DNA from: Porphyridium purpureum | Taxonomy: Eukaryota | DNA: 64,000 nucleotides | Assembly (NCBI GenBank): GCA_008690995.1 | Contig: VRMN01000004.1 | Coordinates: forward strand, 744,001-808,000 | Direction of reading: 5' to 3' | Shown here: positions 2,947-24,204 of the stretch, piece after piece | Numbering within the stretch: position 1 is the first letter of the stretch | Layout of the letters: the number at the start of each line of letters is the position of its first letter | The notes under the pieces: model-generated | What the model saw: the letters and a program-made list of their open reading frames with translations, nothing else | Told to the model about the DNA's origin: nothing | The model's database searches: none | Program-made: the position numbers and the translations under genes

Positions 2947-3414
2947 ATGCCGAATAGCGAAGGATTGCCGCCGCGTGACATGTCCTTCTCGAGTGAAGAG
3001 CCGTCTGAGGGCGGTGACCTTGTTCGTCGCTCGAGCGAAGGCAGCCAACGCTCTCGAACCACCGCAGCAAAAGCGACGAGTCGGACAACAGGCCTTCCAA
3101 GGCTCTCGCACGCTTCGAGCATGTCGAGCTTGACACGGAGCGCGCGCGGGCCCTCCAGCCCGACTTTGCACATGGACCTTCGTGCGATCTCTCTGAACCG
3201 TGAGTGGCTTTCGGTTTCAGACAAGGGCGTTCTCTCCGCTCGGCTGAGTAGCAAGGCCGAGTCGGTGTCCTTTGAGCGAGACACAGGTGCTTCAGTGCCG
3301 TGCCTGAGCGCGCGGCTGGCGACGAATGTGACACGCACTGCCGACTATTTCGCGCTTTATCTGCCCTTGGAGCCGATTTGTGAAGAAGATGAGTTTGAGG
3401 ACTCGAATCAATAG
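2947..3414 (+). CDS. Family A small Ser-rich protein, copy 1 (155 aa), unknown function
   Basis: The C-terminal block REWLSVSDKGV...VPCLSARLATNVTRTADYFALYLPLEPICEED is shared with five other intact ORFs in 2.9-12.3 kb. Confidence 0.85.
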   Translation: MPNSEGLPPRDMSFSSEEPSEGGDLVRRSSEGSQRSRTTAAKATSRTTGLPRLSHASSMSSLTRSARGPSSPTLHMDLRAISLNREWLSVSDKGVLSARLSSKAESVSFERDTGASVPCLSARLATNVTRTADYFALYLPLEPICEEDEFEDSNQ

Positions 3415-4237
3415 AGCAAGTCTAACTTGCACGGCAGGCATGTACATAAAACTTCCTTCGTTGCCTTGAACTAGACTCACACCTCTGGCACCCATCATGC
3501 AGCACATGCAATCCTCCAAATGTACTTGGACTATACCATGCCACACGAGCTGGGCCGTGGACTGTTCTTTTTCTCCTACTCACGACGGCTTTGAAAACCA
3601 GCGGTGCCGTCGACGGACCACACATGGCGCCTGAGAACTTGACAACCACAGGGCTGGAATTCAGAAGGACAAGGCAGACCTGCAGCATGCGCGCTAATTA
3701 TCGAGCGGATGCGCAGACTCAAAGGCACTTGGTCTTGACCACCACGTGTGATAGGACTCAGGTGGATTGCAATTTGGTCGGCCTTTTTTGACTCTGTTTA
3801 GATGCGCGTCGTGAAGACCGTTAGATGCTGTGCCTAGACCATGCTTGGATCTTGTCGCGACAGGCAGAACAGCTGAATTAGCACGGTAGGGAAAAATAAT
3901 AAGCTCACTTCGGCCCTAGGTCATGCCAAGACGAACATCGAGCCCGAGTTGCGGATGACCAGCCTCCAAAAATGCACGCAGACAAAGAATCGGCGGTATT
4001 TTTTCGTTGGGACACGTGGTTGCCAGCTCACGAGCTTATGTTTGAATCTTTCTAGGGCGGAATGGAGTCATCATTTATTGAGCGCCCTGTCGTGATATCT
4101 GCAGAACGAGCCGTGCTCGCAGGGCGCCCCGATGATCATGAGGAGGTCACCAGTTTGGTGTACCTAGTAGGCCACGTGGTCGTTGCGCGTGACCTGAAAG
4201 GTTTAGAGAAGTGTGCGTGATGAATGTTGGACGCAAA

Positions 4238-4763
4238 ATGTCCGAATACGGTATCAGAGCTCTCTCACATTAGAAACGAGAGCCGGCCGAATAAGAAACT
4301 TGCGAAACAATCCCGCTAGATAATGAATTGTGAGTTGACACGAGACGAGCTCAGGCACCGCCCTTGTGATTGTGTGCAGCCGCTTCGTTGCACTTGTTGT
4401 GACGGTCGGTCATTTCATACTCGCCTGACTTGCTCGGGAAATAGGATCACTTTTTTTCAGTGGGTTTCCAACAATTCCAGTAGCTCGAGTCTCGCTGCAG
4501 CTGGAAGTATGAGGAGCAGAGCTGAGCCGCGAATGACTCGCAGTGTCTGACAAAGGCGCACTTTGGGTTCGGCGCAGCAATCGATCAGACGTCACAGACT
4601 GTGAGCCGGCCACAAAGGAATTCGTGCTGTGCCTAGGGCCGCGCGACCGGTAATAAGAGTCACGCGCTCCGCAAACTGTTTTGCGCGTCACTTGCCACTA
4701 GAGCCCAATCGTGAAGAGAAAGAATACAGCACTTTGTACATGGTTTGGCAGCGAGCAACTTGA
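4238..4763 (+). pseudogene. Family A pseudogene (copy 2)
   Basis: From 4522 it reads L S R E *(TGA 4534-4536 replacing Trp) L A V S D K G ... V L C L G P R, then shifts frame into VTRSANCFARHLPLEPNREEKE (from 4659). The upstream SSLAAAGS lies in another frame, there is an early TAG after the putative ATG 4238, and CCACGTGGT is retained at 4172-4180. Confidence 0.8.
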
Positions 4764-5969
4764 CCATTCGTCTTTGAATCACGAAAGCAGTAGCTACGTG
4801 ACACCATGAGCACACAAACCGAGCCGCGACCCAAACTGCGCATGAGCAGCTGCCAACGGTGCTACTTCACCTACACATGGCAGCCTCGCGTTGGACGTGT
4901 GCGCGTCTCTCACCTGTGCGCGCCACTTGGATTTCAAAAGTCTCGCTTTTCTTCCCTTTTTCCTTCCGGATAAGATGGAGGACTCGCACTCACTATCGCA
5001 AGAATTTGCGACGAGTCTTGAGAGAAAGTGCGGAGATCGAATTTCCCCATGAAGAGCAGCGAGCCAGGTGGGATGTAGTTCGGCAAGCGGACTTGTCACG
5101 CGCAAGTTGATAAGAAACTGTCTAGCAGCTCCGGCTGTGGCGGTGGCAAAAGGCATGATGCGGGCGGTTGGAAGTTGATGTGACTTGCGGCCGCGAGCAA
5201 AATGAGTTGGTCAAGGGACTGTACTCTGCGTCGCAATGCTTTCTAGTTGCCTTCGCCACTACCGCTTGCATGAAGCAGCATGAAGCGCAACGGATGTCGT
5301 TCGCACATCTCGCATTTTATGGGTCAGCAGCTACACAAACACCGTATCCCCGATGAAGCAATCTCCCCTCTAAACCTGCGCCCTGTGCCAGAAAGGACAA
5401 CCTTTCTCTCACCGTTTAGCACCAACCGTTCCATCGTCCTTGTCATCGAAAAAAAAAAACCCACCAGTTGGTGCAATGTACCGGCTTGTTCCGTCAGCTA
5501 CGGAGGTCCCATTCCATCCATCACGGAACGGTTTCCGGCTTCTCGCTCTAACACTCCCACCATGTTGTAACCCTTGCCGTTATTGCCGAAATCAAGGGCC
5601 GGCTCCTCTGCTGGGAGCTCGCCAAAATCACTCGCACATTCGGTTGGTGTGTGTTTCGCGTCTCTTTGCACTTGTGTGCATCTGTGTGCATCTGTTTGCA
5701 TCTGCCATCTCCGGCGGAGTAACCAGGCAGTAAGCCGCTGTACCAAAAGAGTTCGATCGAAGCGACGGCAACACCAACTCGTGAAGCCGTTTGCGTGACC
5801 GCGACGACGCTTCGACAAATCACAAACAGCGCATGCTTTCGAGGGCGTCTCGCACTTGGATGAGGCGCTGGTGCGCGGCCACTACCTGCAAGCTACATTA
5901 ATTTATCTTTTTCACAAGACTTGAGAGTGCCTGGAATAGCTTCAAGGTGTTGAGGAAAAGGGGGGGCGG

Positions 5970-6000
5970 TATAAAGGTGAAAGGGATTCGACCACGTGGT
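5970..6000 (+). promoter_or_regulatory. TATA box followed by CCACGTGGT upstream of family A copy 3
   Basis: TATAAA at 5970-5975 and CCACGTGGT at 5992-6000. Confidence 0.55.
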
Positions 6001-6070
6001 CGATGAAGGTACCGCGAGTCAGGAACGCCTCGGTGAAAAGGTAACGAAGAAGAGGTGGCGTTGGGGAAAG

Positions 6071-6574
6071 ATGTCGCAAGAAGAACTGCCGTCGCAAGGT
6101 CCGCGCACGCTGTCGTATGACTCTGTTGCTTCGGAACAGGTACTCAGACGGAGAGGAAGTGGGGGAAATGCCGGATCGAGTAGAAGCCTTCGCTCCCACG
6201 ACGAAAGGTGGAAGCGTTCCGAAACTACCCTCGTGAGTCGGAAAGGTAGCGCCGGTTCTAGCATGCGCAGTCTGCCAGATGCAAACAGTCTCGCGGCGGG
6301 CGGGAGCCGCAGCCCGACATTGAATCTCGAACTACCATCGCTCGTTTTGAGCCGCCAGTGGTTGTCTGTGTCGGATACGGGGGTTTTCTCAAGTCGCGCA
6401 CAAAGCGTAGAGATCGTTCTAGTGAACGGACAGAGCGATGAATCGGTGCCGTGCTTAAGCGCGCGATTGGCGACCAGTGTCACGCGCACCGCCGACTACT
6501 TTGCGCTTCACCTGCCTCTCGAGCCCATCTTTGAGGAGGAAGATGAGACGGCGCAATCGCCCCAGGGCCTTTAG
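6071..6574 (+). CDS. Family A copy 3 (167 aa from the first ATG)
   Basis: RQWLSVSDTGVFSSR...VPCLSARLATSVTRTADYFALHLPLEPIFEEED. The ORF-track start at 5996 is GTG; the first ATG is at 6071. Confidence 0.85.
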   Translation: MSQEELPSQGPRTLSYDSVASEQVLRRRGSGGNAGSSRSLRSHDERWKRSETTLVSRKGSAGSSMRSLPDANSLAAGGSRSPTLNLELPSLVLSRQWLSVSDTGVFSSRAQSVEIVLVNGQSDESVPCLSARLATSVTRTADYFALHLPLEPIFEEEDETAQSPQGL

Positions 6575-7931
6575 CGTGCACTTGTTTGAAATGGCTCGCT
6601 GTATATAAACGATCGTGAATTGCTTTATTTCTCTTTAAGAAAGACATCTTCATCTTGGAATTCGCTCTCCCCCGAGACAGTCCGCCGCGCAGCGAGACGA
6701 GTTAACGATTGGGATGGAGAACACAAGCCACCACTTTATCAGAATCATTGTCTTTGGGCTCAAGCATCCCACCCGAGTCGCTCACGTTGCTTGCAAAACC
6801 TTGCCAGGTCACAGAAATCGTGCATTGTTTTTCATTGCACCCGCTCAACTGCGAAGACCAGGCTTCCGAGACCCAACAATCTTCCGACGGTCTTCGGCGT
6901 CCTCTTCGTGTTACCATTCCTTGATGCCGCGGGAGCCGCTCGCGGTTGCCGTATGGCACCACTCGAAAGCATGCGTGTGCTTCAGCCGCTGGCGTTCACC
7001 GAAGGTTCTGTGCTTTCCGCACGGAATTGGGGACGCCAGCCTACAACAACTTGTCCTGAGGCACACGTGCCGCCATGATTGGATACGAGCGCACACGTCT
7101 ATCCACCACCAGCGCGGTTCCCTTCCAATCGTTGTGAAGGGTCGCCAGAACCCCAAGTCACATGAATCGACCACAGCCTCTACCTTGGGCGCCGACACCA
7201 AAGCGCAAGACCTGCACGAGCCGGGTGCGTAGCACGGGCGCTGACCGGCTAACCCGTGCGCTGAGGCTTTGATTCAGTCCTGCGAGTCGGCGGGCCGCGC
7301 GGTAGAAAGCGGCGTTCGGGTCGTTCACATCCGACCGCTTGGCAGCGCCATTCCTCGGCACCACAAAGGCGTTGCGCAGGAATCCGATTCGGATTTTCTA
7401 CTGTTCGGGATTCTCGGGGATCATGGCCGCGGGCGAACGGTCGAAGGACCGAGAAACCCGTGCCGCGACTTCGCGCATGGGATCATGTGTGAGTATTTGC
7501 ATGACCACTTGGGGATCGATGAGGAATTTGCTGGACAACGTTTGCGCCCCCCTGTTCGTTTTCATGTCGACCGATGACGGAGAGACAGAACGTTGGCTGT
7601 AGCGGTGTGAGCCATGGTGGAAAAAATTCATGGGCAACGATAGCCGCATAGCGATTCCTTTACGGAATCTCTGCTACGTGCGAGGCGCCGCAGATGGCGA
7701 CTGGGCGGGCGGCACTGTGAGTGGGGCGGCAGAGCAGGAGGGGTGAGCGGAGGCGGGGGATAAGCAGTGTCGCTGCGTGCGTACTTAGGTGATGGACCAG
7801 GACACGGTTTTCCTGAACGATGCGGCTCGGCGAGCGGGACGACAGCTGCGTGCGATTGAGAACGGACAACCGTGACATAGATAGAGCACACAGATTCCAG
7901 CAGACGACTCTGCACGCGCAGAATCCCTACA

Positions 7932-8360
7932 ATGTCCATTGGTGCCAAGCAAGAACCGGAAACGGGCTTTCGTCGAGTTCATAGCGACGAGACTGACTCA
8001 AATGATCTGTCCCGCGCCGGTGCTGGCCGCTCAAAGTCGCAGAACGGTCGCACTAAGCGTGCAGGCGCACCGAGTGGTCTCCGAACTGTGTCAAGCGCAT
8101 CGTGTCTGAACGGACGCAGCGTGACCACCCTGCAGATGGATCTTTCCCGCCAACACACAAGTCGGGAATGGTTGGCTGTGGCCGACAAGGGGATATTTAC
8201 GTCTGGCCTCTCGAGCATAACAGAACGAACCGAGTCCGAATCGAGCGGCCCGCGTCTCCAGGCCCGACTCGCGCCCAACGTGACGCGCACGTTTGACTAC
8301 TTTGCCGTCCATGTGCCGCTGCAGCGCATCAACGAGGAGGCCGAGTCAGACAAGGAGTAG
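7932..8360 (+). CDS. Family A copy 4 (142 aa)
   Basis: LRTVSSASCL...TLQMDLSRQHTSREWLAVADKGIF...RLAPNVTRTFDYFAVHVPLQRINEE. Confidence 0.85.
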   Translation: MSIGAKQEPETGFRRVHSDETDSNDLSRAGAGRSKSQNGRTKRAGAPSGLRTVSSASCLNGRSVTTLQMDLSRQHTSREWLAVADKGIFTSGLSSITERTESESSGPRLQARLAPNVTRTFDYFAVHVPLQRINEEAESDKE

Positions 8361-9262
8361 GATATTTCCTGGAACGAAAGATGCCTGCATGTATTATGGA
8401 TAAACCTAGCTAATTGCCGCTTCACCACCAGCGGCGCGTCACCTGGTCGCTGGCCATTCCATGGACACTTGTCCCTCGTGCGTCTTCCGGTCGCGGGGAG
8501 AAACGCCAAACAGTACCTCTATGTACAGCTACCGAGCGGCCTAAACGGTTTGAGGCGATAACGGCGAGTCGTTTGAGATGCAGACCACAGGTCAATCGTG
8601 GATGAATGCTGATGAAGATCCGCAAGAGGATAGGTGAGTCTGGAGCTGAGATGGGAAAGGCCGTGAACGAGCGTTGACCGCGGCAACATTGCGGGGGCAC
8701 ATAGACGCTGACAAGAATATTTGCTGCTTGGGTGCATCGATACAAACACCCTATTCCCATAAAATGGCGGCGGGCGGTTATTTTCTGGTCGACGTCGTGC
8801 GTTACGACACTTGGAACCGATGGATCGTGAGAGACCCTTCACAACGTTGGCAACACGACGGACAAAAGCTCATAAATGTGAAAGAATTCATTGCTCTAAG
8901 CAGCATGGTCATCATCCGAGAAAGATTCAGCGGGCTCGGGTGAACAGTATGAAGATTGTTTGACGGAATTCGGCAGGTTCTTTTCTGGGCGGGAAGGCCT
9001 TATTCCAAGACTTGTGTCCGTGTGAATTCTCGGCGGAGGAGAGCGGCCAAGCGTATCCTTTGACTGGATCTTTATCGGCTCCTGCTGATTTCTCAGGCGT
9101 AAAACGAAAGTACTGACTCCACGGCTTGATAAAAGGAGCGACTGGATCGTCTTCTTCGTCACGCGTGCGGGTGGGTCGTGCGAAAAAGGATGCGCCTCCC
9201 TTTGTACACGAACAAGGAAAGAGGCTAGCCATCCCAGGGACCAGGCTGCTTGGAGCACCACC

Positions 9263-9760
9263 ATGTCGACGCACGTCGAACAAGCATCTCCGAGACAGCT
9301 GAAGATTGGGTGCCTTCGCAGTGGCGACTTACGAACGATAAGTGAGCAGAGCCCAGGCAATGAGCCTCTCCATTGCATAGGTGACCCAATTCCGCACGTA
9401 CGCGATCCCGCCGAGGCAGTGCGCTCCAAATCGCAGAAACCACCTCGAACAGGTAAATTCCCAGGCGCCTCGAGTGCTCTACGGAGTGTGTCGAGCGCAT
9501 CCAACTTGTACGAGAGGGGTGCGTCAACGCTCCAGTTGAAGCTTCCCCGCCACATCGCGAATCGTGAGTGGCTCTCAGTTGCTGATAAGGGCGTCTTCTC
9601 GTCTGGTTTGTCTAGCAGGGCAGACCGGTCAGAGTCCGACTCGAGCGGCCCGTGTCTTCAAGACCGACTAGCGACCGGCGTCCTGCGCACTTCAGATTAT
9701 TTTGCTCTCAACCCCGCGCTCGAGCCTATCAGCGAGGGGGAAGAATCGGAACACGAATAA
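9263..9760 (+). CDS. Family A copy 5 (165 aa)
   Basis: RSKSQKPP...LRSVSSASNL...REWLSVADKGVFSSGLSSR...PCLQDRLATGVLRTSDYFALNPALEPISEGEE. Confidence 0.85.
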   Translation: MSTHVEQASPRQLKIGCLRSGDLRTISEQSPGNEPLHCIGDPIPHVRDPAEAVRSKSQKPPRTGKFPGASSALRSVSSASNLYERGASTLQLKLPRHIANREWLSVADKGVFSSGLSSRADRSESDSSGPCLQDRLATGVLRTSDYFALNPALEPISEGEESEHE

Positions 9761-10743
9761 ATTGGGCTTGTAACTACAGGTGACCATGCTATCGCAAGAA
9801 ATGAAAGTGGGGTTCTTCCAGACCGCCGCCGTCACCATACTACACGTCTTGGCCTCTAAGTTTCCTCAGCACTCAGCGCTGGAGCCTTTCAGCGAGTGGG
9901 AAAGACCTGAACAGAAAGAATTTCGGCACGCGAGTGCAAAAGCCATGCCATTGGGAGATAGCGACTTGGGATGCTTCCCTAACTCTGCCTTGGCCTCACC
10001 ATTTCCCAGAGTTGCCACAGAGTGTTGGTGCGGAACAAGGAGGATGAGGCTCTGAAGCGCCTTTCTCTATAGCATGGCCTTTCGACTGCCACGAGGTGCA
10101 CCCTGCACATTGCGATTCCCTTCTTCTCTTAAGATTCGCAGGTGGCAAAGTTCGGCCTTCTCATTTGAGGATGTGTGCAACGACGGCTGCGACTGGGTAG
10201 AGTGGCTACGCAGGCGGGCCACAGCCTCACGACATGACACATACCGCGAGGCGAGTGCCACCGCACCGCACCGCGCTACACTGCGCTACACTGCTGGCGC
10301 CGTTCGTGCAGTTTCGCCATCATGGGCAGAGCGCTACTCGTCACAGACGCCAGGCGCCGCGTGCACCCGCACCACATCGATCCAATATGCCCATACGACA
10401 ATGAACCGCCTCCCGAACGTCCCTATTTTTTCCCTGGGGTTTTCAGTGATAGGTTCACGCATTCGACGCATTGGGGGACAGAGGCACGCCGCGCAACGTG
10501 TTGGCAACGTGTTAGCTGTCGGGTCAGCAAGCAGGCTGGGCGTGGTTTGTTCGTGTGTTGGTTGGGGGTTTCACCCGAGGTGGAATCTCGGGATGCGCAC
10601 AGAAGTGTTGGCATGGCCGCTGCTCACGAACGGAGGAAATGTCAGGTCTGAATTCGCGCCGCTCTCGCGATTGGAGGGAACGGCCCTCGCGGTCGGCGGT
10701 TATTGTGGTGGACAATGCCGCGCGTGGCGTGGCGTGAGGGTGG

Positions 10744-10750
10744 TATAAAA
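10744..10750 (+). promoter_or_regulatory. TATA box upstream of family A copy 6
   Basis: TATAAAA followed by TGACGTG at 10760-10766, about 220 nt before ATG 10965. Confidence 0.45.
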
Positions 10751-10964
10751 GACTCTGCCTGACGTGTGAGCAATATCGCTTGGTTTGGTCAGTCACGCGG
10801 TTTCAGGTAAGTGGGGTTGGCTGCTGCCGCACTCTGTCTCACTGGCGGAAAAGAGGTGTTGAAGCGAAGAGCAGGCGTTTAGAGCATCTTGTGAGGTCGT
10901 CAGGTCGTTTAATGCCAACTGGAAGTCGCTTGACGTCGGCGAGTAGCTTACCTTGTCAAGCGCA

Positions 10965-11438
10965 ATGCCGCCCGAAGTAGAGTCAGAGGCCGCGGAACTG
11001 CGCCAATTGCACAGCGAGGAGGCCCGACGCCACGACATGGAGGAAACAATCAGCATCAGCGACCTTGCAAGTCTGTGCAGCCATAGCTCGACAGACGCGC
11101 GCCGCTCCAAATCTCAGAAGCCGCCGTCGGGACACGAACTAAGTGGCTCGCGTCACACATTGCGAAACGTGTCGAGCGCGTCAAGCCTGAGCGCACGCAG
11201 TGTGCCCACGCTGCAGATGGACCTGTCCCGACAGAACACGAGCCGGGAGTGGCTGTCTGTGGCGGACAAGGGCGTCTTCTCGTCGGGCCTGTCGAGCAGA
11301 GCTGAGCGGTTCGAGTCAGACATGGGCGGCCCTTGTCTTCAGGATCGGCTGGCGCCAAACGTGACCCGAACGGCCGATTACTTTGCGCTGCATCTACCAC
11401 TGGAACCCATCGACGAGGACGATGGCACGGACCCTTGA
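10965..11438 (+). CDS. Family A copy 6 (157 aa from the first ATG)
   Basis: RSKSQKPP...LRNVSSASSL...REWLSVADKGVFSSGLSSR...PCLQDRLAPNVTRTADYFALHLPLEPIDED. Confidence 0.85.
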   Translation: MPPEVESEAAELRQLHSEEARRHDMEETISISDLASLCSHSSTDARRSKSQKPPSGHELSGSRHTLRNVSSASSLSARSVPTLQMDLSRQNTSREWLSVADKGVFSSGLSSRAERFESDMGGPCLQDRLAPNVTRTADYFALHLPLEPIDEDDGTDP

Positions 11439-12008
11439 CTGCTTCGTCCAGCCAGCCACCGCAGCGCTGAATAAGCAATGCCGCATCACATAGAAATGCG
11501 GCATTGTCATAACACTGTACCTCCCACCCAATTGAGGCGCTGGCGGTTTGTGGGGAGCGAGCAGGTCGCAGTGAGGCGACGTGCGATGTGAGGGGCATGA
11601 ACTTCGCCGCGCATTCCTCGAGCACGAGCGTGAGCGCGAGCGACCAAACCGCCAAACAGTTCTGCGATACTCGGTCGTTGTGATCACCCGGAACACGTGG
11701 TCGCCCGCCGCGGCGCAGATGGGATCAAGCGTGAATTAAGCGCGCACCGCGGCCACCACAATGCGGTCATGGACGAGCAGTAATGCCGGCCTGCTCAATG
11801 TCGTGTGACATGGTCGACGGTTTCTCCGGCTACATTAGAAACCTGGGTAGAAGTGACTATTTAACAGCCCCGCCCGACATGCTGCTCGGTTGCCGACCGG
11901 AATTCAGTTGGTGATGCTCCATTGCGTTCTTCGGTCTCGTTCTTCTTCTCTGACTGCTGAGGAGGGGCACTGGGGAACAGCTCGCGTGCCCGCGGGCCCG
12001 TTTCGATC

Positions 12009-12317
12009 ATGATGTCTGAGCATGTGTTCGGCAAAAACCAACATATGCTAGTTTCGCAGCTCTCAGACCGCCTGAGCGCCAAAAAACAGCACGTGGCCTT
12101 GACGTGGCGCGAGAAGCGCGACTGGCTGGCGGTCTCAGACACGGGCATGGTGATATCGCGGAATGCTCTGATGCAACTGCCCCCATCGCTGTCAAGCACT
12201 GAAATTCCGCGTCTCACGGCGCGCTTTGCCACGTGCGTGCACCGCACGCGTGAGTATTTCGCTGTGCATAAGCCACTAGGAATCATCCACGAAGAACCAG
12301 AGACGGAGCAGAGATAG
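12009..12317 (+). CDS. Family A copy 7, divergent and short (102 aa)
   Basis: RDWLAVSDTGMV...IPRLTARFATCVHRTREYFAVHKPLGIIHEEPE. It lacks the Ser-rich N-terminal half; an in-frame TGA lies upstream at 11958-11960. Confidence 0.7.
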   Translation: MMSEHVFGKNQHMLVSQLSDRLSAKKQHVALTWREKRDWLAVSDTGMVISRNALMQLPPSLSSTEIPRLTARFATCVHRTREYFAVHKPLGIIHEEPETEQR

Positions 12318-12385
12318 CAGTAAAGTTTGGATCTGACATTCGATTTCTGTGTTGCTTTTCTTTTGTTTCGTTGATCTGGTCCCAC

Positions 12386-13492
12386 ATGGCCGTGGCGCAC
12401 GTGCGCGTGCCGCTCGTGGCCGCGGGCTTCCTCATTTGCGCCGCCTTCGTGTGGTTCACCAGCGGCTTGCAAAAGCTCGCAGATGACGGCGGTCCGGTCG
12501 TGTCGCGCCTCCCAGCTGAGCTGATTCGCGGGACGGCGTTCGAGGTCGACGAGGAGGCGCGACGGGCACGCGTGGCAAGGAATCCTTGGGTGACAGAGTA
12601 TCAGCAAAGCGGGCAAGTGTGGAATCATTGGGATGCGGAAGAACTCAGGCGAGGTGGGTTTGTGCCGTCTGGCGGCGAGCATGACGCATTCTCGAATGCT
12701 TACCGAATACGTGAGCCAGAGGTGACTGTAGACGCAAGTCATGGCGTCGAGTGGGTTCGGCATGTGATTGTGGTGGGATGCGGCGGTACCTTTCGGCCAT
12801 CGGCGCGGACGGGTGATCGCGTGGAGGTGCGGTATGTTGCGGAAATGCGTGGAAGAGACGCACGCGCAGTCGCGCCTACCCCGGTGCTCAATGTATCGTT
12901 TGTGTTGGGAGCCAAACAACCGTTTCGTGCACTACAGAGCGCCATCGGCCGCATGTGTCCAGGTGAAATAGCTGAGCTCGTGATACCATCGTGGGTGCTT
13001 CGGATTCTGCCAGGAGCGCATCATATTCCGTCATTCCTGAAGAGCGCCACACCCTTGCCGCGGCGCGGTGGTCTCGGACCCCAGCTGCACATCTTTGTGC
13101 AACTGGTGTCGACGGCTCGCGCCACTGAATCTATGGACGAGTTCGAAGAGGCGCAAGTCCTTGCAGCACGTATTCTGGCCATCGCTGGGGCGCAAGGCGA
13201 GTCGTGCGACTCTGCGTGTGCGCGCAACAATGCCACTTGCTTGGCGGACGCGTTTAAAGTTGTCAACGAATGTCCTCGCATCAAAACAGTCTTCCCGTGC
13301 ACTGTCTGTGAGGTCGCCGCGAAGGGTTCGGCCGGCCCAGATATGCCGTGCTTCGTGTCACCAAGCGCTCCCATCGGTCACCCGCGCGGTTACTGCATGG
13401 CTACTCCGAATGTAGCAGTATCCGATTGTGCAGGCAGGTATCCACACACATCGCGTGTTTGCCCGTGCGAGCCTTTGCTCACGCAATCATAG
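12386..13492 (+). CDS. Membrane-anchored FKBP-like domain fused to a GnT-V (GT18)-type C-terminal Cys-rich domain
   Basis: N-terminal hydrophobic anchor (VPLVAAGFLICAAFVWF). FKBP pattern GDRVEVRY...FVLG...AIGRMCPGEIAELVIP...LHIFVQLV. The C-terminus GESCDSAC...C...DCAGRYPHTSRVCPC resembles the MGAT5 tail. Confidence 0.65.
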   Translation: MAVAHVRVPLVAAGFLICAAFVWFTSGLQKLADDGGPVVSRLPAELIRGTAFEVDEEARRARVARNPWVTEYQQSGQVWNHWDAEELRRGGFVPSGGEHDAFSNAYRIREPEVTVDASHGVEWVRHVIVVGCGGTFRPSARTGDRVEVRYVAEMRGRDARAVAPTPVLNVSFVLGAKQPFRALQSAIGRMCPGEIAELVIPSWVLRILPGAHHIPSFLKSATPLPRRGGLGPQLHIFVQLVSTARATESMDEFEEAQVLAARILAIAGAQGESCDSACARNNATCLADAFKVVNECPRIKTVFPCTVCEVAAKGSAGPDMPCFVSPSAPIGHPRGYCMATPNVAVSDCAGRYPHTSRVCPCEPLLTQS

Positions 13493-13990: not shown

Positions 13991-15286
13991 TCAATGCACA
14001 GGCACACACAATTCGCGGAAGAAGGGCCGTGTCCAGTCTTTCCACGTGACCTGCTCAAAACTTTGCGCGAGCGATGGAGCGCCGGAGTCTCGCAGTTGGA
14101 CTTCACGAAGCGACTTCATGAACTCGACATAGTAGAAAGCCGCAATACCGTTGCAACAGGCATGGTCCAATTTGTGCGACTGGCGAAGGCAGTTGACGAC
14201 ATGCACGAACTGGTCGCCCTGCGTCCACAGATGGTGCGACTTGTGGTGCTCGACCGTATTTCTGTCGAATGGTTGGTGCTCTAGCTCGAGGTGTGCATAC
14301 GAATTGAGCACTTGCTGCGGCACCCAGCTGACATATTCCAGTTCGGGAGCGTGCTTCTTCTCCATGCCCTCACGAATCGCCATGAGGTCGTCATTTCGAT
14401 CCACTAGACCAATCTCGACCGCCCAGCGGTCCAAGAAAGCGCGCCCTTCTCGCCCGGTGCTTAACAAGGTGACGCCCGGGTTGACCTGCCTCCCACCCCA
14501 ATCACGGCTCAACACTACGAAGTGGCCGCTACCTGGCGGCGCGTATAAGTCGACAAGCGATTCCAACGACATGCTGGCGTTTGTGATCAGCACATCTGTG
14601 TCCAGCCACAGCAACCAATCGTAATCATCCAAGTGCCGCCGAAACGCCGCAATACGGCTGCCGCTCTTCTGCGTGAAGCTCATTTTATCCGAGAGCAGGT
14701 CCGAGTCTGAAAAGTACGAATACCCGTACAGACGGGCGTACTGCGCCTTGGTCTCGCTGGCCAAGTTGGCCATGACATCGTAAACTTTCCCATTGTGCGC
14801 AGAGATGATTGCGAAACGTGCGCGGCGGCCAGGCGGATTGCCAAAAAGCTCCTTCGACAAAGAATCCAGCCCCATGGCACGGCTCGCGCTGCTGAAAGCG
14901 TCTTGACCGTCAGAAGAGCTCACAGCGTCCTCCTGCAGGTTCGCGGCCGATCGGTCGCCAAAGTACATGCCCACCTTGTGCACCCACACACTTACCGCCG
15001 CAAGCGTGAAAATGCCCACCGTGAAAATCACTGTGTCGCGCTTCACATTTGGAACGCCGCCGGTGATCCCAAACCGCCGCATCCTCTCTCCTTTCCGCTG
15101 TCTGTAATACTCGCCCCTCCCGCCTTTCCTCTTCGTCTCCTCGTCTGTTCGTCTTCCTCTCGATCTAAATCCACCATCGCCACGAGAAACCCTAGCAGTC
15201 ATCTTGCCATCACTGTACCTCCTCCACACTGTACACCCACGCACTATTGCTCTGAATGCGTCATCACAATGTAATGTGCATTCCAT
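13991..15286 (-). CDS. Glycosyltransferase family 34 (GMA12/MNN10-like), type II membrane protein
   Basis: TM segment VIFTVGIFTLAAVSVWV, then KAQYARLYGY, YDWLLWLDTDVLITN (DxD) and DWGGRQVNPGVTLL. The true start may be 15202 or 15082. Confidence 0.8.
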   Translation of the reverse strand: MECTLHCDDAFRAIVRGCTVWRRYSDGKMTARVSRGDGGFRSRGRRTDEETKRKGGRGEYYRQRKGERMRRFGITGGVPNVKRDTVIFTVGIFTLAAVSVWVHKVGMYFGDRSAANLQEDAVSSSDGQDAFSSASRAMGLDSLSKELFGNPPGRRARFAIISAHNGKVYDVMANLASETKAQYARLYGYSYFSDSDLLSDKMSFTQKSGSRIAAFRRHLDDYDWLLWLDTDVLITNASMSLESLVDLYAPPGSGHFVVLSRDWGGRQVNPGVTLLSTGREGRAFLDRWAVEIGLVDRNDDLMAIREGMEKKHAPELEYVSWVPQQVLNSYAHLELEHQPFDRNTVEHHKSHHLWTQGDQFVHVVNCLRQSHKLDHACCNGIAAFYYVEFMKSLREVQLRDSGAPSLAQSFEQVTWKDWTRPFFRELCVPVH

Positions 15287-16081
15287 CGAATGCTCGTGGT
15301 GTCATTCGGTGTACCCACAGTACCTCGTCAAACCATGGCCCGCACTGTACTCGCGACAAGCATCCCGTGTCCATTGACTATGAAACCACGTGTGGTGTTA
15401 TGCGTTGCAATGTTTTTTTTCGGGAGGGGCGCGAAATCGACATGGACATTTCAAAGCAAGGCGAAAACGCCTCAAAAACATGTGCACTTCTGAATTTGAA
15501 AATCGCGGGCGCGCGTGATTAATTTCAGTTAGAACGCATGACGGCGACGAGCGTCTTCTTTGCAACGGTCATTTCGGCGGTGTAACGGCAGCTGTGGCGA
15601 GCAGTGGTTGCTGTTTCTGTGGGTTTGTCGGGGGGGGAATTTGTGTGAGCGCGTGCATCTTTCAAACGCGCGCGTCGAGCCAAATAGTGCGTACGAAGAA
15701 TACGATGCAGGATACACGATGGGTTACGGCAGCCTGCGTGGTGCGGAGAAGGAGGCTGGACAACTAATGAGTGCGTCAAGTACGCAATCGCGGATGTGAC
15801 GGTTGCGCAGTTTGCGGCCTGGTCGGTCTACTCAAACAGCCTTCCTGTCTATCGAGCTGGAAAGCGACGCGCGTTTGGATGGACTGCCGAGCTGCGGCTG
15901 GCTCGCGGATTGGTAAGCGGTATATCACAAGGTCGCGCAGGGTATTAAAGGTGTCTCAATTGGACAGAGCACATACGGCCAGAGGTAGAGAGGTTTATCA
16001 GGCAGACCTGAATGTGAGGCCTGAAGCCAGGCGCCGCAAGCGAGGGTCGGGCACGACGATCGAACAAGGAAAAGAGCAACG

Positions 16082-17878
16082 ATGCAGAACGCGTTTCGGC
16101 GCATACTGACGCCCAAAAAGCATGCGGCAGCGCATGAAGCAGCGCGCAACGAGGCCATGGCGCGGGCGCAGCATGGCGCTTCGCCGGTGCCCAACCTGTA
16201 CGGCTCGGAAGAGCTGAATGAATGCCCGAGCACCAGCACTGAGCTGTCGGTGCCGCAAGTGTGCTCGCCGTCGCAGTACAAAGGCGCAACGTCGTCCGGA
16301 TACTCGCCGGCGTTTGCACGCTCTAAGGCCTTCCATGACAGCAGCGCAGCGGCACCCAGCAGGGTCACGGGGACCGGGGACGACGGCTGCGATGCCCCAC
16401 AGACAATTGACAGCCGCCCCAAGAAGCAGAGTAGCGCGCGCAGTGCGGGCAGTGCGCGCCAAGGCGCCGACAAGGAAAACAGTGCGTGTGAAAATTCGTA
16501 CGAGAATCTGTATCAGGAGGACTCGTCCATGCACTCGCCGTCCGTGCTGACCAAAAAGATATCAGACAAGCCGCCCAAGACCCCCGTCCAGGGCCGCAGG
16601 TTGGAATTTGGTTTTGCGCGCAAGGACTTTAACCGGAACAAGGTCTCCGAGCCCAAAATCGGGACGCCGCTTGAACTCGTGCACCAGGTACACGTAGAGC
16701 AGGATGTCGAGTCGAACACGGGCTTCATGGGCCTGCCACCGTCCATGGAGGCCGAGTTGATCACCAACGGACTGAACCATTTGGACTTGAACGAAGACCC
16801 GAACGCAGCTATGGCTGCGCTCCAGTTTTATAACAAGTCACGCGCGCAGTCTGTGTATGAGCGCTCTGCGCGCGCGGTGGCACTTGCGACGGACGGCGAC
16901 TCGGCCAGCACCGAAGCCGGACGCACCAAGTACCTCGAATCGCACTTTCGTTTCTCCGTTCCGCCCGAGCAGCCAATCTTTCGAGACGAGGACCCCGAGT
17001 TGCACTTCCAAGCCATCAAGGGGCTGGGCAAGGGTGCAGGCGGTATTGTGATTCTGGTCACGAAGAACGATGACCCGACGCAGACGAAGCTCGCCCTGAA
17101 AAAAGTGGAACCTGCGGATGAGAGTGAAGAGCGCGCGCTCGAGATGGAGATTACAGTCATGAGCGGCACGCGCCACAAGAATCTTATCAAGTGCTACGAG
17201 ACATTCCGCTGGGAAGGTGCGTGGTGGATCTCGATGGAGTACATGTCAGGCGGCTGCCTCACAGACGTGCTGGATTTTTTGCGCAAGACGAAGCAGAGCA
17301 TGCCTGAGAAACTGATCGCGTACGTCATCCGACAGACTCTGAAGGGCCTCAACTATATGCACATGCAGAAGAGACTGCATCGCGACATCAAGTCGGACAA
17401 TATTCTGGTGTGCGCAGACCAGGGAACTGTCAAGCTAGCAGACTTTGGTTTTGTGTGCGAGCTCACCGAAGAAAAGGCGAAGCGCACCACGTGTGTCGGC
17501 ACACCGTATTGGATGGCACCGGAGCTTATCAGCAACCACGAGTATGACTACAAGGCGGACGTATGGAGCATGGGTGTGCTCACGATTGAGTGCGCGGACC
17601 TGGTTCCACCGTATTTTGACGAAAAGCCGTTGCGCGCCATGTACTTGATCACCAAGCGGCCGCCGCCGCGCATGAAGGACCCGAGCAAGTGGTCGTTCGA
17701 GATGCTCGACTTTGTGGCACGCTGTGTGGCACTCAACCCTGCGCGCCGCGCCACCACGGCAGAGCTGCTCGCGCATCCATTCCTGCGCCAAACTGCTGAC
17801 AAGAACGACATGAAGAAGATGCTGCAGGATATGTTCCAGCTGAAGGCCGCAAACAAGAAAAAACTTCTGCACAATTAG
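16082..17878 (+). CDS. PAK/STE20-family Ser/Thr kinase with a CRIB/PBD domain
   Basis: PBD-like IGTPLELVHQVHV...GFMGLP. Kinase motifs LGKGAGG, ALKK, HRDIKSDN, DFG and RTTCVGTPYWMAPE (STE20 signature). Confidence 0.92.
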   Translation: MQNAFRRILTPKKHAAAHEAARNEAMARAQHGASPVPNLYGSEELNECPSTSTELSVPQVCSPSQYKGATSSGYSPAFARSKAFHDSSAAAPSRVTGTGDDGCDAPQTIDSRPKKQSSARSAGSARQGADKENSACENSYENLYQEDSSMHSPSVLTKKISDKPPKTPVQGRRLEFGFARKDFNRNKVSEPKIGTPLELVHQVHVEQDVESNTGFMGLPPSMEAELITNGLNHLDLNEDPNAAMAALQFYNKSRAQSVYERSARAVALATDGDSASTEAGRTKYLESHFRFSVPPEQPIFRDEDPELHFQAIKGLGKGAGGIVILVTKNDDPTQTKLALKKVEPADESEERALEMEITVMSGTRHKNLIKCYETFRWEGAWWISMEYMSGGCLTDVLDFLRKTKQSMPEKLIAYVIRQTLKGLNYMHMQKRLHRDIKSDNILVCADQGTVKLADFGFVCELTEEKAKRTTCVGTPYWMAPELISNHEYDYKADVWSMGVLTIECADLVPPYFDEKPLRAMYLITKRPPPRMKDPSKWSFEMLDFVARCVALNPARRATTAELLAHPFLRQTADKNDMKKMLQDMFQLKAANKKKLLHN

Positions 17879-18388
17879 GCGCTGTGTGCCGATTGTGATG
17901 AGCTGAAAGTATGAAAGATGAGTTTTCTTGCATTATTGGACAGTGCCATGCGTCGTCGGGCAGCGGAGTGACAGACCAGTCAGTGTTTGACGACGGCATA
18001 TGTCGCCCGCATTGATTGATTCGATTGCTTTGCAGTAGCGTGCAGTGAAAGTTCCCTTCCTCTCCAAAAGAATGTGATCTAGTGCAGCGATCTTGTGAAA
18101 CTCGCGTCCCGAACCCACGTGTCAACCTGAAAACTATTGCGTGTGGAGCCGTGCGAATCGCTGGAATGCGATAGTCCTCGGATTCTTCAGACGAATAGTG
18201 TCAAAAGCGGCCGTCTAGGGAACTCGCCAGATAAGCGCGGGCGCGCCACCCACGTATGTCGGCGCATGTGTTTGTCTTTTGAAAGTTAAACTATCCAATT
18301 GTCACGCGCTCCTGTTCTTCATGTGATTGGGGGGAGCCTGCACGCGTTGTCTGGATACGCTTCGGCAAGTGCATCAAGGGCGTGCAAT

Positions 18389-18622
18389 TCAATTTGTGCA
18401 ATACGACCGAATTGCTCGACGCAATGCCTGATCTGCAAAGTTGCCAATTCGCTCGCTCCACGCGTTCTGGTCTTGGTCGCCTTCGTCTTCATCTTTATGA
18501 GCCTTTTTGGGAATGGGTTCAAGGGTTGGAGATAAGCCGAAAATCCTCAGGGGCCCGCACATGCGCACTGGCATCTTGCCAACGCACCTGGATCGAATTC
18601 CTTCCAATGCAGCCGTCAGCAT
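18389..18622 (-). pseudogene. Family B degenerate copy (probable pseudogene or strongly diverged paralog)
   Basis: TAALEGIRSRCVGKMP...FGLSPTLEPIPKKAHKDEDEG aligns with TAALQEIRFKCVDKMP...FFSNLETIPEVAEEEE of 23761-24204. The motif Glu is replaced by Lys, and similarity (RQRVQAPP vs RRVQTACP) continues past two stops. Confidence 0.6.
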
Positions 18623-19863
18623 TGCGGTACCTATCTTGACGAGGTCACTGAACTGATGCTTGCCTTTGCACGGTGGCAAATCGCAACCCGACTCAAACAA
18701 GCCACGTCACAGACACAGCAGCTCCTCGCCGATAGCGTAGCGAGACCAGAGCAACCACTGTGTTGCCATGCCGTCCATCACAGCCGGCACAACTGTGTCA
18801 CGATCAATCCAACACACACGCTCGAACGCTTGTACATCCACATCTACACACACACACGCACCTCAGCACATGCCATGTACAGAATCTGCCACCACTCTGG
18901 CAACCAGCCTGAGCCCTAGCTCACCAGCTGTCCTGCTGTCCAATGGACTCCTGCACCCATGCCTGGACTCTTGGACTGAACCTTCACGGCCGAACGCCTT
19001 TTCTTCTTCTTGTTGTTTCGACATGATTCACCCGCCTCGTCGCCGCCTTACACATGAAAAGTAAACGGGAATCATATCAAAAATCACATGCTCCTGAACA
19101 TATTCCCCCTTCCCCCCCTTTTTTCATCCGTGGCGTCAGGCTTCGACAACGAAGACGTAACCGGCTGCATCTGCAGCCGAACACGAAACCACAACTCCTC
19201 CATGCTTGCAACTATCCGCCGTGAAACGTGGAAGGTGACACTGCCACAAATACATCCGATCAAGTAGAAACACTTCCACGTGTGTTTTCTATCACGACGC
19301 TTGCAACCAGCCTAAGAATGGGCAATTTATGATTGCAAGTCCACAACCGCCGCTGGTTTTATTATTCGAAACAAATACACACGCATGCTTGCACGCTTGG
19401 ATGGCGGTGAAAGGCAGAGGAGAAGAAGCCGGGGCGGGGGGTTTGCTTGATCTTGGTACGATTATGAAGATCAAGCACGCGAGGAGGAAGTACAGTGGTG
19501 CTTGCAGTGATGAGGCGACCGAGACGTGAAAGGCCGAAAATCTCTCTGGCCGAGATGGCGATTGGCGAGTTGTGCCGCTTGGCATGTGCCATGCTGGTGG
19601 AAGCACCGCGCAACAGAACGACACAGGCCCCCGGGCTGCCTTGTCAGCTGCCAGTGGTGGGGACAGAAAGAAAAGGAAGGAAACAATGTGGGAATCAAAA
19701 AACGTTTCGTTCATACTGAGGCGACCGGCTATGGCGGCTCGCAGCTGTTCGACTCGGTGGAGCGGCGTGTCTCTATAAGGGGACGGTGAGGGATGAGCGG
19801 GTTGGGCGCAGAGTTGGATGGAAAAGGTCAACTAGAGGTGGAGACAACACAAGGAGGGTAGTT

Positions 19864-20250
19864 ATGCAGCCCTCTCATCAAGCAACAAGCCCGCATACAT
19901 CCATGCCGCTTCAAAGAGCGTGTACGACGTGTGGTCGGGGCGAGGCTGAGGACGCCGCACGCATGCACGGTGCGCTTCTCCGCTCATACACTATGCCGCG
20001 CGCCATGTCAAACGCAGCTTCCTGCGAAATCAAGTTTCGCTGCCTCGAGATCATGCCGGAACAAGGGCCGTCGCCGTACCGCCGCTTCTCGTACACACCG
20101 ACCCTGGAGACTATTTTTGAAGAGGACGAAGAAGACGAAAGTGGCAGACAAGAAGAAGGCTCTAGCAGTCGAGAGAGCAACGTCGCCTCACGCCACAAAT
20201 CACGTGCGATTCCAGCTCGCATGGGTTCTTCGAGATATTCCTGTGAATAG
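19864..20250 (+). CDS. Family B small protein (128 aa from the first ATG), unknown function
   Basis: LLRSYTMPRAMSNAASCEIKFRCLEIMPEQG...YTPTLETIFEEDEED; TATAAG at 19774-19779. Confidence 0.82.
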   Translation: MQPSHQATSPHTSMPLQRACTTCGRGEAEDAARMHGALLRSYTMPRAMSNAASCEIKFRCLEIMPEQGPSPYRRFSYTPTLETIFEEDEEDESGRQEEGSSSRESNVASRHKSRAIPARMGSSRYSCE

Positions 20251-20513
20251 CCTAGCCATCGAGGCATTGTATCGGGTGTTTCTAGTAGCATATCGTCAGA
20301 TTCAGTGTATAAATGATGGCCTGGACAAAAGACTACATCATTCACTCTCGCACACCATGTGACGTTTTCCGGCGCACGCGCGAATCCCACCATCATTTCC
20401 ATGCTGTACATACTGAGTCGGTTCCTTTTACTCAGTCGAAAGTTTCCTAGAAGCTTGTACAAAAAGTAACTATGTGCACCGGAGCTAGCTAATTGAGCAG
20501 ACTATGCATGATC

Positions 20514-20822
20514 TTAGGAAGAATGGGTTCGAGAACTCGCATCCATTGTTCCACTGCTCGATTCGTCCTCTGAAACTTCCTCGTCTTCTTCGTAAATGGT
20601 TTGTAAGGTGGGCGTATATCGGGTTCGTCGATACGGCACGGAAACCTGTGTCGGCATCGTATCGAGACAGCGCCATTTGATTTCACAGGACGCTGCGTTT
20701 GAAAGTTTGAGCGGCATGGCCTTTGAGCGCAGAAGCATGCTGCCTTGCGCAGCAGACGACGCAGCACTGCTCAATGTCGTGGCCCGGCCCGGCGACGCAT
20801 TGGTCTGGTTGGTTTTCGACAT
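20514..20822 (-). CDS. Family B small protein (102 aa from the first ATG)
   Basis: LLRSKAMPLKLSNAASCEIKWRCLDTMPTQ...YTPTLQTIYEEDEE; minus-strand TATAAA at 20952-20957. Confidence 0.82.
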   Translation of the reverse strand: MSKTNQTNASPGRATTLSSAASSAAQGSMLLRSKAMPLKLSNAASCEIKWRCLDTMPTQVSVPYRRTRYTPTLQTIYEEDEEVSEDESSSGTMDASSRTHSS

Positions 20823-21736
20823 GCAATGGATCGATTCAAGCTCATGACAGTTCAATGTGATTCTTTACCTTCTGCGTCTGGTTTCTTGCTTTGCTCCGTC
20901 CATATGTTATGGCCTACCCGAACGGAGCCCGGCCGTTCTCGACCTGACTCCTTTATACTCAATGCCCGTCAACTGCACCTGTGCACGGGGCCGCCGCATA
21001 TTGCCAAGGGCTGCGCGAGTCTAGGGTCATCAACATGAACGGACGGACTTCATGCGCAACCCCACACTTTGCCTTCTGAACATGCAAACACAATGCGTGC
21101 TAGGACCAATCCCTGGTGTTCCTCCACCGGATGTTGCGCAGTGTCGAGCCAAACACGTCATGAATCCGCGTGAGTTCCAAGCTACACCACCATGTAAAGT
21201 TCTGTGCATCGATATCACTGAATGTACGGAAATCTGCGAATCCCGCTGTGGTCCAACACTTTTTGGTTACACATCGCAGCAGAAAGCTTGTCCTGCTAGA
21301 AAAACAACTCCGATGTAGTGAGTAATCATTGGTGAGGAGGAGGGTATCTTGCCCTGCACGGCTGCGTTACGACGAGCAACCAACATATCGATCCAGGCAT
21401 GTCATCCAAGCCTTTCCAATGCGGTGGTGGTGGCAGTGCCGGCCGTGCGGAGTGCATGTCGAAAGTGTCGACGACGTTCTCCCAGTGAAAGGAATCTCGC
21501 AACGACAGAGGCGAAAGAAAGAGCGACGCCTGCAAAGTGGCTTATTCCCAAGCCACGGCGAAGCGCCGGCCGTCTGTCACAAATTCTGAGTGATCTGGGG
21601 CGTTCTGGGTTGATAATGAGAGCGTCGTGCCGCACCCACCAAGCTTTACCCTATTTTTCAACGGGAGTGTCACCGTTGTTGTATATTTCTATAATCACAC
21701 CTTCATCAATAATACTATGTACACATGGATCTCCGT

Positions 21737-22156
21737 TTACGCCCGGCTCGCAGAAGAACTCTTGCGCGAGCGGAAATCCCTTGTCCGCGTCAAGTCATTG
21801 TATGAGCCAGCCTCGCTCGACTGTACTGCGTCAGTGTACGAGCCAACTTCGCTCGATTGTACCGTGTCAGTGTCGGAAGCAACCTCATTCGACTGTGTCA
21901 ATTCACAGTCTTCCTCGTTCTCTTCGTAGATGGTCTCCAAAGTGGAGGTATACTGAATCCGTGAATACGACCCGAGACCCTGCGTCGGCATGGTCTCCAG
22001 GCACCCAAAGCGAATTTCGCATGAAGCGGCGCTCGACATTTTCAGCGGCATCGTCTTGGATCGCGTCAAGGCGTTTCCTGGCAGGCCAGACGACACGCCG
22101 CCGTTCATTGTGCGCGACCGTCGCAACATTGTTGATTCTTGACCCGAATAGAGCAT
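21737..22156 (-). CDS. Family B small protein (139 aa) with an internal 12-aa repeat
   Basis: LTRSKTMPLKMSSAASCEIRFGCLETMPTQG...YTSTLETIYEENEED; minus-strand TATATAA at 22253-22259. Confidence 0.82.
   Translation of the reverse strand: MLYSGQESTMLRRSRTMNGGVSSGLPGNALTRSKTMPLKMSSAASCEIRFGCLETMPTQGLGSYSRIQYTSTLETIYEENEEDCELTQSNEVASDTDTVQSSEVGSYTDAVQSSEAGSYNDLTRTRDFRSRKSSSASRA
21794..21899. repeat. 36-bp tandem repeat (about 3 units) inside a family B CDS
   Basis: gagccagcctcgctcgactgtactgcgtcagtgtac / gagccaacttcgctcgattgtaccgtgtcagtgtcg / gaagcaacctcattcgactgtgtc, encoding QSNEVASDTDTV-QSSEVGSYTDAV-QSSEAGSYNDLT. Confidence 0.9.
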
Positions 22157-23760
22157 ACTTTGGCGCTACGCCTTGTCCTTACTTTTGCGGATATCAAGAT
22201 GAATCGTCGCATCACTTTCTTCTTCATGCTTTGCCCGCCTCTTTTCGTGGCCTTATATACACGTTGAACACAATCCTCCTGGTCTGATTTTAGCTCAACG
22301 CACGGACACAGACAGCCAACGCAAGACACCGCAAGGCTCATTGACTTGGCTTCCATGGAATGCAAATTGCTTGGGACGTGAACGAGGATGATGCTTCAGC
22401 TGACGAAGACGGCAAGTCCGGGTGAACGTCTATTTTTGTGCCCCGTTCAGCAGACCTGTGATCGAATTCGGACCGCCGATCTCGCCGAAATCACACGTCC
22501 CGCGCCACGTTTCTACGACAGACGCATTCTACGCTTCTACGCACGACTCGCTCTGCGATGCTTGCAACGAGGTTACTCGCTCACCCTGTGCCGCACAAGA
22601 CGTGCAACACGACACTTCCATCGGTCGTTGTTGTCCGCCCTTGCGCCGCAGCAACCGCTCCGGCCACACGGAGGAACAGCAAACGGCAACGTAGAAAAGG
22701 GCGCCGCGATCGCCGAAATCAACACGCACGACGTGCTGAGTGTACACCCACCGCCGCGCTAAATTCGTTCCCTCACCCGCCAAAAAGCGGTTCATCAAAT
22801 TCCCCTCTTGTCATCAGAACATCCAACCCTCGCGTGCACTTTAAGTCCAGCGCAACGTCATCACTCTACCTTTTCTATGATTCGAACGGCGGGGTTCAGT
22901 CGCGGGCAAGGGTGCACGCTCACGCAAGTAGGGTTACAAGCCGCCCGCGCTGACAAGGACGAAGAGTGTGCGCCTGCGCGATGCGACGGGATTTCTGAAT
23001 CACGGAGGAGCGTGTGCGGGATTGTGTGTCTCGCGGAATGGATTTTTTTTTTGATTTCTTCCCTTTTCGTCGAGCGTATGAATGTGGACCATGTTTGCGA
23101 ACACGTTCGTAAGGTCGTGGCGATACACGGAAGACGAACGTCAACAACCATGGTAGGATTTCGACGCAACAAGCGTGCATCCTCATTGCGTGTGAACATG
23201 CCCGTTCGCGCGATCGGAAAGGGGGCATAGCATCCATCCCACCATGATTCCGCCGACTTTGCGAGCCGCGCCGAAACTGTCATGCGAAAATGAGCATGTC
23301 GTGCTTGTTTTGCCAGGGGAGGAAAACGATTCGGCTCGCCCGCCCACCGCCTCATGGCGATCCACTTCGTGCCTATTCAGCAAACGGCACGCTGGAGGTA
23401 AATCTCGCGTAGTGTAGAGTTGTGGGTGATCGACTAAATTAAATTGAATGCGATGCTCATGTCTGTGAAGCGCTTTGTATGACCTACATTCGTCATTCCT
23501 CTTTTGATTCCGACGACACCAGAGAACCGAAAAGAAGAACCGCGGGAGTAAAAATAAAAAACCACCCCGCATGCATTATCTGCCCGGCGTGGTGTAGAGC
23601 GCGTGTGGCTTGTATATAACCAGCCCCACGCCGGTCAGGAAGGAAGCGGTACGATCTCTGTATCTGAACATTTTTCATCCAACTCTTCGAACTCTCAAAG
23701 GCTTGTGCGCGCACGGCAGTCTTTGCAACTTGGCTTCGGCGTTTGGACCAGCGCGCCGCA

Positions 23761-24204
23761 ATGGAGTACTCGACCTTTTCATTCAAACGCGAGCCCGCGG
23801 CATCGACTGCTGCGCTCCAGGAAATCCGCTTCAAGTGCGTGGATAAGATGCCTCAGCCCACCGGCAGTACGCAAAGACTTCGCTTCTTTTCCAACCTCGA
23901 GACCATTCCAGAGGTGGCTGAGGAAGAGGAGGAAGAAGAAAGCGAACAGGAGGAACGTGGCGAGTCATTCAAGTCAAATAGGAGCGTCCGAATGCCGTAT
24001 AGCAGTGCGTCGGTGGACTTGAGACTGTTCAGACGTGTACAAACAGCCTGCCCGGGGTCAATGGGCTTGAGCAGGCGACCTAAACGGTACGGAAGCAATT
24101 CGATGAACTCAACAACCGCCATAATGCTGCGCCAACGACAATCTGGTGAGCTGCAGAAACTCGTTGAGCACCTCATGGTCCTGACTGAGTCCGGTAGCCG
24201 GTGA
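23761..24204 (+). CDS. Family B small protein, divergent subtype (147 aa)
   Basis: STAALQEIRFKCVDKMPQ...RFFSNLETIPEVAEEEEEEE; TATATAA at 23613-23619. Confidence 0.75.
   Translation: MEYSTFSFKREPAASTAALQEIRFKCVDKMPQPTGSTQRLRFFSNLETIPEVAEEEEEEESEQEERGESFKSNRSVRMPYSSASVDLRLFRRVQTACPGSMGLSRRPKRYGSNSMNSTTAIMLRQRQSGELQKLVEHLMVLTESGSR

Follow-up and report, generated by a model that had tools for sequence, protein, structure and literature searches.

Two arrays of small genes

Here we describe two neighbouring arrays of genes for small proteins in a 64,000-nucleotide (nt) stretch of the Porphyridium purpureum genome (contig VRMN01000004.1, positions 744,001 to 808,000), hereafter the window, and the short motif LxxIxE, through which the proteins of both arrays probably dock onto the B56 subunit of protein phosphatase 2A (PP2A). 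The window is intron-poor eukaryotic DNA with a G+C content of ~55%, and one family B protein is entered in the protein database as hypothetical, from P. purpureum. Array A consists of six intact genes, all on the forward strand (2947-12317), and a pseudogene (4492-4727). Array B consists of four intact genes on both strands (19864-24204) and a fifth open reading frame (ORF), Bd (18389-18622). Protein lengths across both families range from 77 to 167 amino acids (aa). In the list below, the motif coordinate is the first base of the Leu codon, as located in the ORFs of the window, and the RNA depths come from three stranded raw runs (X21, X22 and X23), all from one study.

A1, 2947..3414 (+): family A, 155 aa, LEPICE-EDE, motif at 3367; sense RNA 35-58x
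A pseudogene, 4492..4727 (+): LEPNRE; two stops and a frame change; mostly antisense-covered
A2, 6071..6574 (+): family A, 167 aa, LEPIFE-EED, motif at 6518; RNA 36-298x
A3, 7932..8360 (+): family A, 142 aa, LQRINE-EAE, motif at 8319; RNA 12-22x
A4, 9263..9760 (+): family A, 165 aa, LEPISE-GEE, motif at 9719; RNA 7-14x (weak)
A5, 10965..11438 (+): family A, 157 aa, LEPIDE-DDG, motif at 11400; RNA 27-64x
A6, 12009..12317 (+): family A, 102 aa, the most divergent copy, LGIIHE-EPE, motif at 12276; RNA 50-79x
Bd, 18389..18622 (-): family B, 77-aa open ORF, LEPIPK; RNA 48-107x
B1, 19864..20250 (+): family B, 128 aa, LETIFE-EDE, motif at 20104; RNA 111-324x
B2, 20514..20822 (-): family B, 102 aa, LQTIYE-EDE, motif at 20606; RNA 437-1176x
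B3, 21737..22156 (-): family B, 139 aa, LETIYE-ENE, motif at 21940; RNA 766-1827x, the highest of all copies
B4, 23761..24204 (+): family B, 147 aa, LETIPE-VAE, motif at 23896; RNA 38-146x

The ten intact genes are real at the transcript level, all of them being covered on the sense strand. For B4, the RNA reads place the poly(A) site at 24302 and contain no splice joint supporting the annotated 166-aa spliced form (P0008). An exact look-up did not find the well-transcribed B1, B2 and Bd ORFs in the protein collection; they are probably unannotated. The depth of A2, B1, B3 and B4 differs 2-7-fold between runs, A2 reaching 206-298x in X21 and X23 and 36-39x in X22, i.e. ~6-7-fold lower in one of the three. 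Within A4, antisense depth (7-10x in the bin 9301-9640) is similar to sense depth (7-14x), and in the pseudogene bin 4541-4880 a sense depth of 4-5x compares with 37-43x for antisense.

Several further features were observed at the family loci. Antisense transcripts from the reverse strand run between and over the family A loci (4200-5900 and 6580-7260). Over the pseudogene, the antisense reads are nearly all non-reference (31 of 31 at position 4523 in X21) and the sense reads mostly reference (3 of 9 differ), which suggests two haplotypes with allele-biased transcription at this site. A1 and A2 have a TATA box in common (2832-2861 and 5970-6000), with CCACGTGG lying 22-23 nt downstream of it in both. 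A 27-nt repeat just downstream of A4 (9876-9902) is 89% identical to the motif-coding stretch of that gene (9716-9742). Enrichment of G-boxes at the family loci was considered and rejected, since they occur at 4 of 12 family loci and at 5 of 15 other genes.

The LxxIxE motif in the two families

The first-pass annotation of this DNA had claimed that all ten intact copies carry LxxIxE with acidic residues, and the claim is borne out: all ten octamers were located within open frames at the locus. In the published consensus, P1 and P4 are variable with a preference for Leu and Ile, Glu is required at P6, and acidic residues at P2 and P7-9 raise the affinity (PMC10970375). In all ten copies, P1 is the favoured Leu, P4 the favoured Ile and P6 the obligatory Glu. 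Glu occupies P2 in seven of the ten, and at least two acidic residues are found at P7-P9 in nine, B4 (23761) having one. The three key residues are also invariant in all seven family A sequences, i.e. the six copies and P0009, a homologue described below. The relaxed consensus [LMFI]xx[ILV]xE is satisfied by the ten intact copies and P0009, and not by Bd and the family A pseudogene. Within 15 residues upstream of the motif, each copy has one to three Arg or Lys residues, one Arg being invariant in each family.

The x positions had been described as variable. This holds fully for P5, where the seven family A sequences display six different residues (D, C, F, N, S and H) and the four intact family B sequences three. 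It does not hold for P3 in family B, where all four intact copies have Thr, or for P2 with its predominant Glu. A free P5 between invariant Ile and Glu would suit the exposed spacer of a docking motif.

To estimate the contribution of chance, each protein was shuffled 20,000 times, and LxxIxE followed by at least two acidic residues within the next four was counted. The per-protein P ranged from 0.0005 to 0.0032. Strict LxxIxE occurs 22 times in the six frames of the window, and 3 times in 15 other window proteins totalling 12,055 aa. Because homologous copies share their ancestry and are not independent, the ten copies count as two matches rather than ten. Even so, chance does not easily explain the presence of the motif in two unrelated, neighbouring families. 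A3 (8208) and A4 (9329) each contain one more LxxIxE match, which is not conserved.

Conserved cores and family range

The motif is a small piece of a larger conserved core, which the earlier annotation had overlooked. The family A core spans ~60 aa in two blocks and that of family B ~35 aa. Across the seven family A sequences, 18 positions are invariant, including Trp, Tyr and Phe residues; conservation stops at the motif Glu, and the acidic tail that follows defies alignment. Between paralogues, the pooled proportion of synonymous differences (pS) is 0.74 in the A core and 0.78 in the B core, meaning that synonymous sites are saturated, while the proportion of non-synonymous differences (pN) is 0.34 (A) and 0.36 (B) in the cores compared to 0.48-0.60 in the less alignable ends. 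Since pS is saturated and core pN is low, both families are old duplications with cores under purifying selection. No inner branch is supported in the trees of the copies, and we therefore claim no order of duplication. At least two variants fall inside the six intact family A coding regions (2,682 of 10,200 nt) and at least six in the 236-nt pseudogene; the binomial P of 0.0006 for this distribution is only indicative, as the 40 of 158 variants used are not a random sample.

Neither family reached a Pfam family by the cut-off in the 12 family sequences scanned. A HMMER scan of the family A core against 1.84 billion representatives gave ten matches, comprising the six copies themselves, P0009, and three (P0010-P0012) that were rejected as repeat-driven matches lacking the core. 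P0009 is a 219-aa protein from a 1,696-nt contig that matches the core with an E-value of 8e-15 and retains LxxIxE and the acidic tail; it could represent either the orthologue in a different organism or a paralogue missed by the annotation. Word-based searches retrieved only window proteins, both for family A (6 of 7,989 candidates) and for family B (2 of 7,311), for which they were the only protein search. By the same means none of 7,984 candidates was a longer form of family A, which is weak evidence. Metagenome contigs (searched for family A) and viral contigs (searched for both families) contained no related loci. The ESM Atlas gave no feature match, its structure rows lying below threshold, and sequence-search matches in the PDB (E 0.12-0.52) were rejected. 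These searches suggest that A and B are two lineage-restricted, previously undescribed families.

A remote common origin of A and B, or convergence, had also been proposed. Profile comparison with hhalign gave probabilities of 32.5 (22 columns) and 17.4 (20 columns), both confined to the motif and tail. An alignment of just 20-22 motif columns speaks against common origin and indicates convergence on the motif. A superfamily joining A and B was rejected, there being no profile similarity beyond the motif.

The further argument, that decay and a broken motif coincide exactly in the same copies, is weak. In the pseudogene, 5 of the 18 residues invariant in family A are gone, and that many losses would strike at least one of the three motif positions by chance with P=0.65. 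Bd, for its part, is an open ORF of 77 codons that is transcribed at 48-107x. Its core pN of 0.33 relative to B4 is a sign of past selection. Bd is likely to be under relaxed selection now, because other conserved residues have been lost too, the leader contains six upstream ATGs, and six of the nine variants displayed are non-synonymous. In B1, all five displayed variants are non-synonymous, and all lie outside the core.

Probable B56 docking and a proposed mechanism

Our analyses suggest that the proteins of both families dock onto B56 through LxxIxE, and we put the probability of this reading at about 0.7. Support comes from the retention of the motif in P0009, a homologue from outside the window, in addition to the agreement with the consensus in all ten copies. 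The B1 motif, LETIFE, equals the PRR14 Tantalus motif with its F changed to L, a form for which tighter binding to B56alpha was reported (10.1101/788356). A basic patch within ~15 residues upstream has been described as an optional enhancer (PMC7108865), to which the upstream Arg and Lys residues of families A and B would be a thin match. Sequence context is also reported to alter LxxIxE affinity strongly (PMC8809670). According to PMC10418862, the B56 pocket is shared by eukaryotes in conserved form; among 20 metagenome B56 sequences, 70 of 120 central-region columns are at least 90% conserved, and one B56 locus, L079, matches PF01603 with an E-value of 1.4e-185.

The proteins of both families are predicted to be mostly disordered. 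AlphaFold returned predicted template modelling scores (pTM) of 0.21 and 0.12, from alignments of six and five sequences, with no fold predicted and a predicted local distance difference test score (pLDDT) of 61-78 near the motif. The ESM Atlas models had a pTM of 0.13 and 0.08.

RepoMan, BubR1 and KIF4A (PMC7108865, PMC10970375) share with families A and B the same consensus, with L1, I4 and E6, acidic residues at P2 and P7-9, and an upstream Arg within 15 residues. However, they are large proteins with tested binding, whereas the A and B proteins are small (77-167 aa), encoded in tandem and without a Pfam family, and their binding is predicted. In the Tantalus domain of PRR14 and PRR14L (PF15386; 10.1101/788356), a conserved block likewise ends in (F/L)ETIFE, and the conserved residues upstream are dispensable for B56 binding. 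Residues 73-93 of B1, one of the five B copies, gave a weak match to PF15386 with an E-value of 0.013; homology was rejected, since the 15.9 bits lie below the cut-off of 32.8 and the likeness is that of the motif. A literature search, most subscription journals and supplements aside, turned up no paper dealing with these genes or with red algal LxxIxE docking, and for plants the available texts offered just a prediction list of LxxIxE for Arabidopsis. The docking mechanism is already known; the families themselves are new.

If docking occurs, an adaptor would fit best, because the 15 further invariant residues of family A would be needless for binding through the motif alone, pointing to a second conserved surface. 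We see even odds that these small proteins are B56 adaptors, or substrate-adaptors, that bring PP2A to a second partner. The motif and its acidic residues would bind the B56 pocket, and the upstream conserved block would bind another protein, thereby recruiting the phosphatase to that partner. Phosphorylation of Ser or Thr in the basic N-terminal parts could switch the interaction, and the docked phosphatase could remove these phosphates. A putative AMPK/SnRK1-type pattern occupies an equivalent alignment position in A1, A3, A4 and A5, the acceptor being Asp in A2. A presumed 14-3-3-type pattern, RSx[ST]xP, occurs in B1 and B3, whereas B2 has an Ala. These N-terminal patterns are leads only. 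The RVxF pattern for protein phosphatase 1 was found in none of the 12 family proteins.

Alternative explanations

Several points weigh against docking and the adaptor built on it. LxxIxE was singled out for scrutiny only after the sequence had been inspected. It accounts for only 3 of the 18 invariant positions of family A, closing the conserved block rather than being set apart by conservation. Docking presumes that P. purpureum has a B56, and the B56 sequences compared come from metagenome organisms. Low AlphaFold confidence indicates disorder only weakly when the alignments contain five or six sequences, and the confidence peaks beside the motif. The RNA support rests on runs of a single study, the candidate partner of the upstream block is hypothetical, and the phosphosite patterns carry little weight by themselves, with a shuffle P of 0.27-0.36 for the AMPK-type one. 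Lastly, Bd is transcribed despite having lost the essential Glu.

The transcription of Bd fits with LxxIxE being no B56 site at all and instead terminating a small fold or a surface that binds some other protein, its resemblance to the docking motif being coincidental in one or both families. We consider this unlikely, though deserving of serious weight, given that in family A the motif extends a densely conserved block whose invariant residues include Trp, Tyr and Phe, and that residues 56-62, immediately before it, are modelled as a helix with a pLDDT of up to 78. It would nevertheless require the same chance match in two unrelated families (P ~0.002 each), P5 tolerates six different residues, and conservation ends at the Glu, beyond which the acidic tail cannot be aligned; no solved structure or Atlas entry was matched. 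Accepting B56 as the target, the proteins could alternatively be inducible decoys, small endogenous inhibitors that occupy the B56 pocket tightly and compete substrates off PP2A-B56. Their small size and near-optimal motifs with acidic tails are compatible with such a role, as are the very high transcript depth of B2 and B3 (437-1827x) and the 2-7-fold differences between runs for A2, B1, B3 and B4. Read depth is not protein level, however, and the run conditions are unspecified, while a pure decoy would have no need of the 15 additional invariant residues, and we regard this role as rather improbable. Endosulfine and ARPP19 are small disordered PP2A inhibitors that act on B55 through a phosphorylated site and not on the B56 pocket. 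They would resemble families A and B, as small phosphatase-directed regulators, only if the proteins are decoys, and no endosulfine Pfam match was seen at E-values up to 0.1 in the 12 family sequences scanned.

The first-pass annotation had further placed both arrays in a phosphatase-regulation module clustered around a kinase gene.

PAK-type kinase, 16082..17878 (+): CRIB/PBD and kinase domain; neighbour only

The kinase is a genuine CRIB-kinase (PF00786, E 1.3e-7; PF00069, E 1.3e-58). It lies 511 bp from Bd, a formin FH2 gene stands at the other end of array A, and A1, A2 and B1 contain RRxS, all of which could be read as a single functional unit of kinase, substrates and phosphatase adaptors. 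But A6 ends 3,765 bp before the kinase gene with two unrelated genes in between, RRxS has a shuffle P of 0.25-0.30, and the kinase itself has no strict LxxIxE. Each array is explained by tandem duplication, and A and B are unrelated. Position being the sole link, the module is not borne out, and we hold it to be highly improbable.

Other genes in the window

The formin FH2 gene (1-1134, -; PF02181, E 5.8e-16) runs off the start of the window and is oriented head to head with array A. A 116-aa protein encoded at 35618-35968 (+) has a weak dormancy/auxin-repressed match below the cut-off (PF05564, E 0.027), and the gene at 36438-38765 (+) combines a partial Mlo match with EF hands in one chain. 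At 42792-57197 (-), a single ORF of 4,801 aa encodes an unusual photolyase-like polyprotein, in which DNA photolyase domains (PF00875, E 2.4e-87) occur as nine stretches in tandem.

Significance

The general impact is limited, as the mechanism is known and the range of the families seemingly narrow. A more speculative scenario, unlikely in our judgement, is that the alga evolved twice, side by side, a set of small, inducible, stand-alone proteins for the B56 pocket. Depending on conditions, these would redirect the phosphatase or titrate it, and they would be to B56 what the endosulfine-type regulators are to B55. In an alga that can be cultured, the locus provides ten naturally occurring variants of the motif together with one natural control that has lost the Glu. 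If the families do bind B56, their upstream blocks would constitute two new interaction modules, and the partners of these blocks would point to the targets of PP2A-B56 in the alga.

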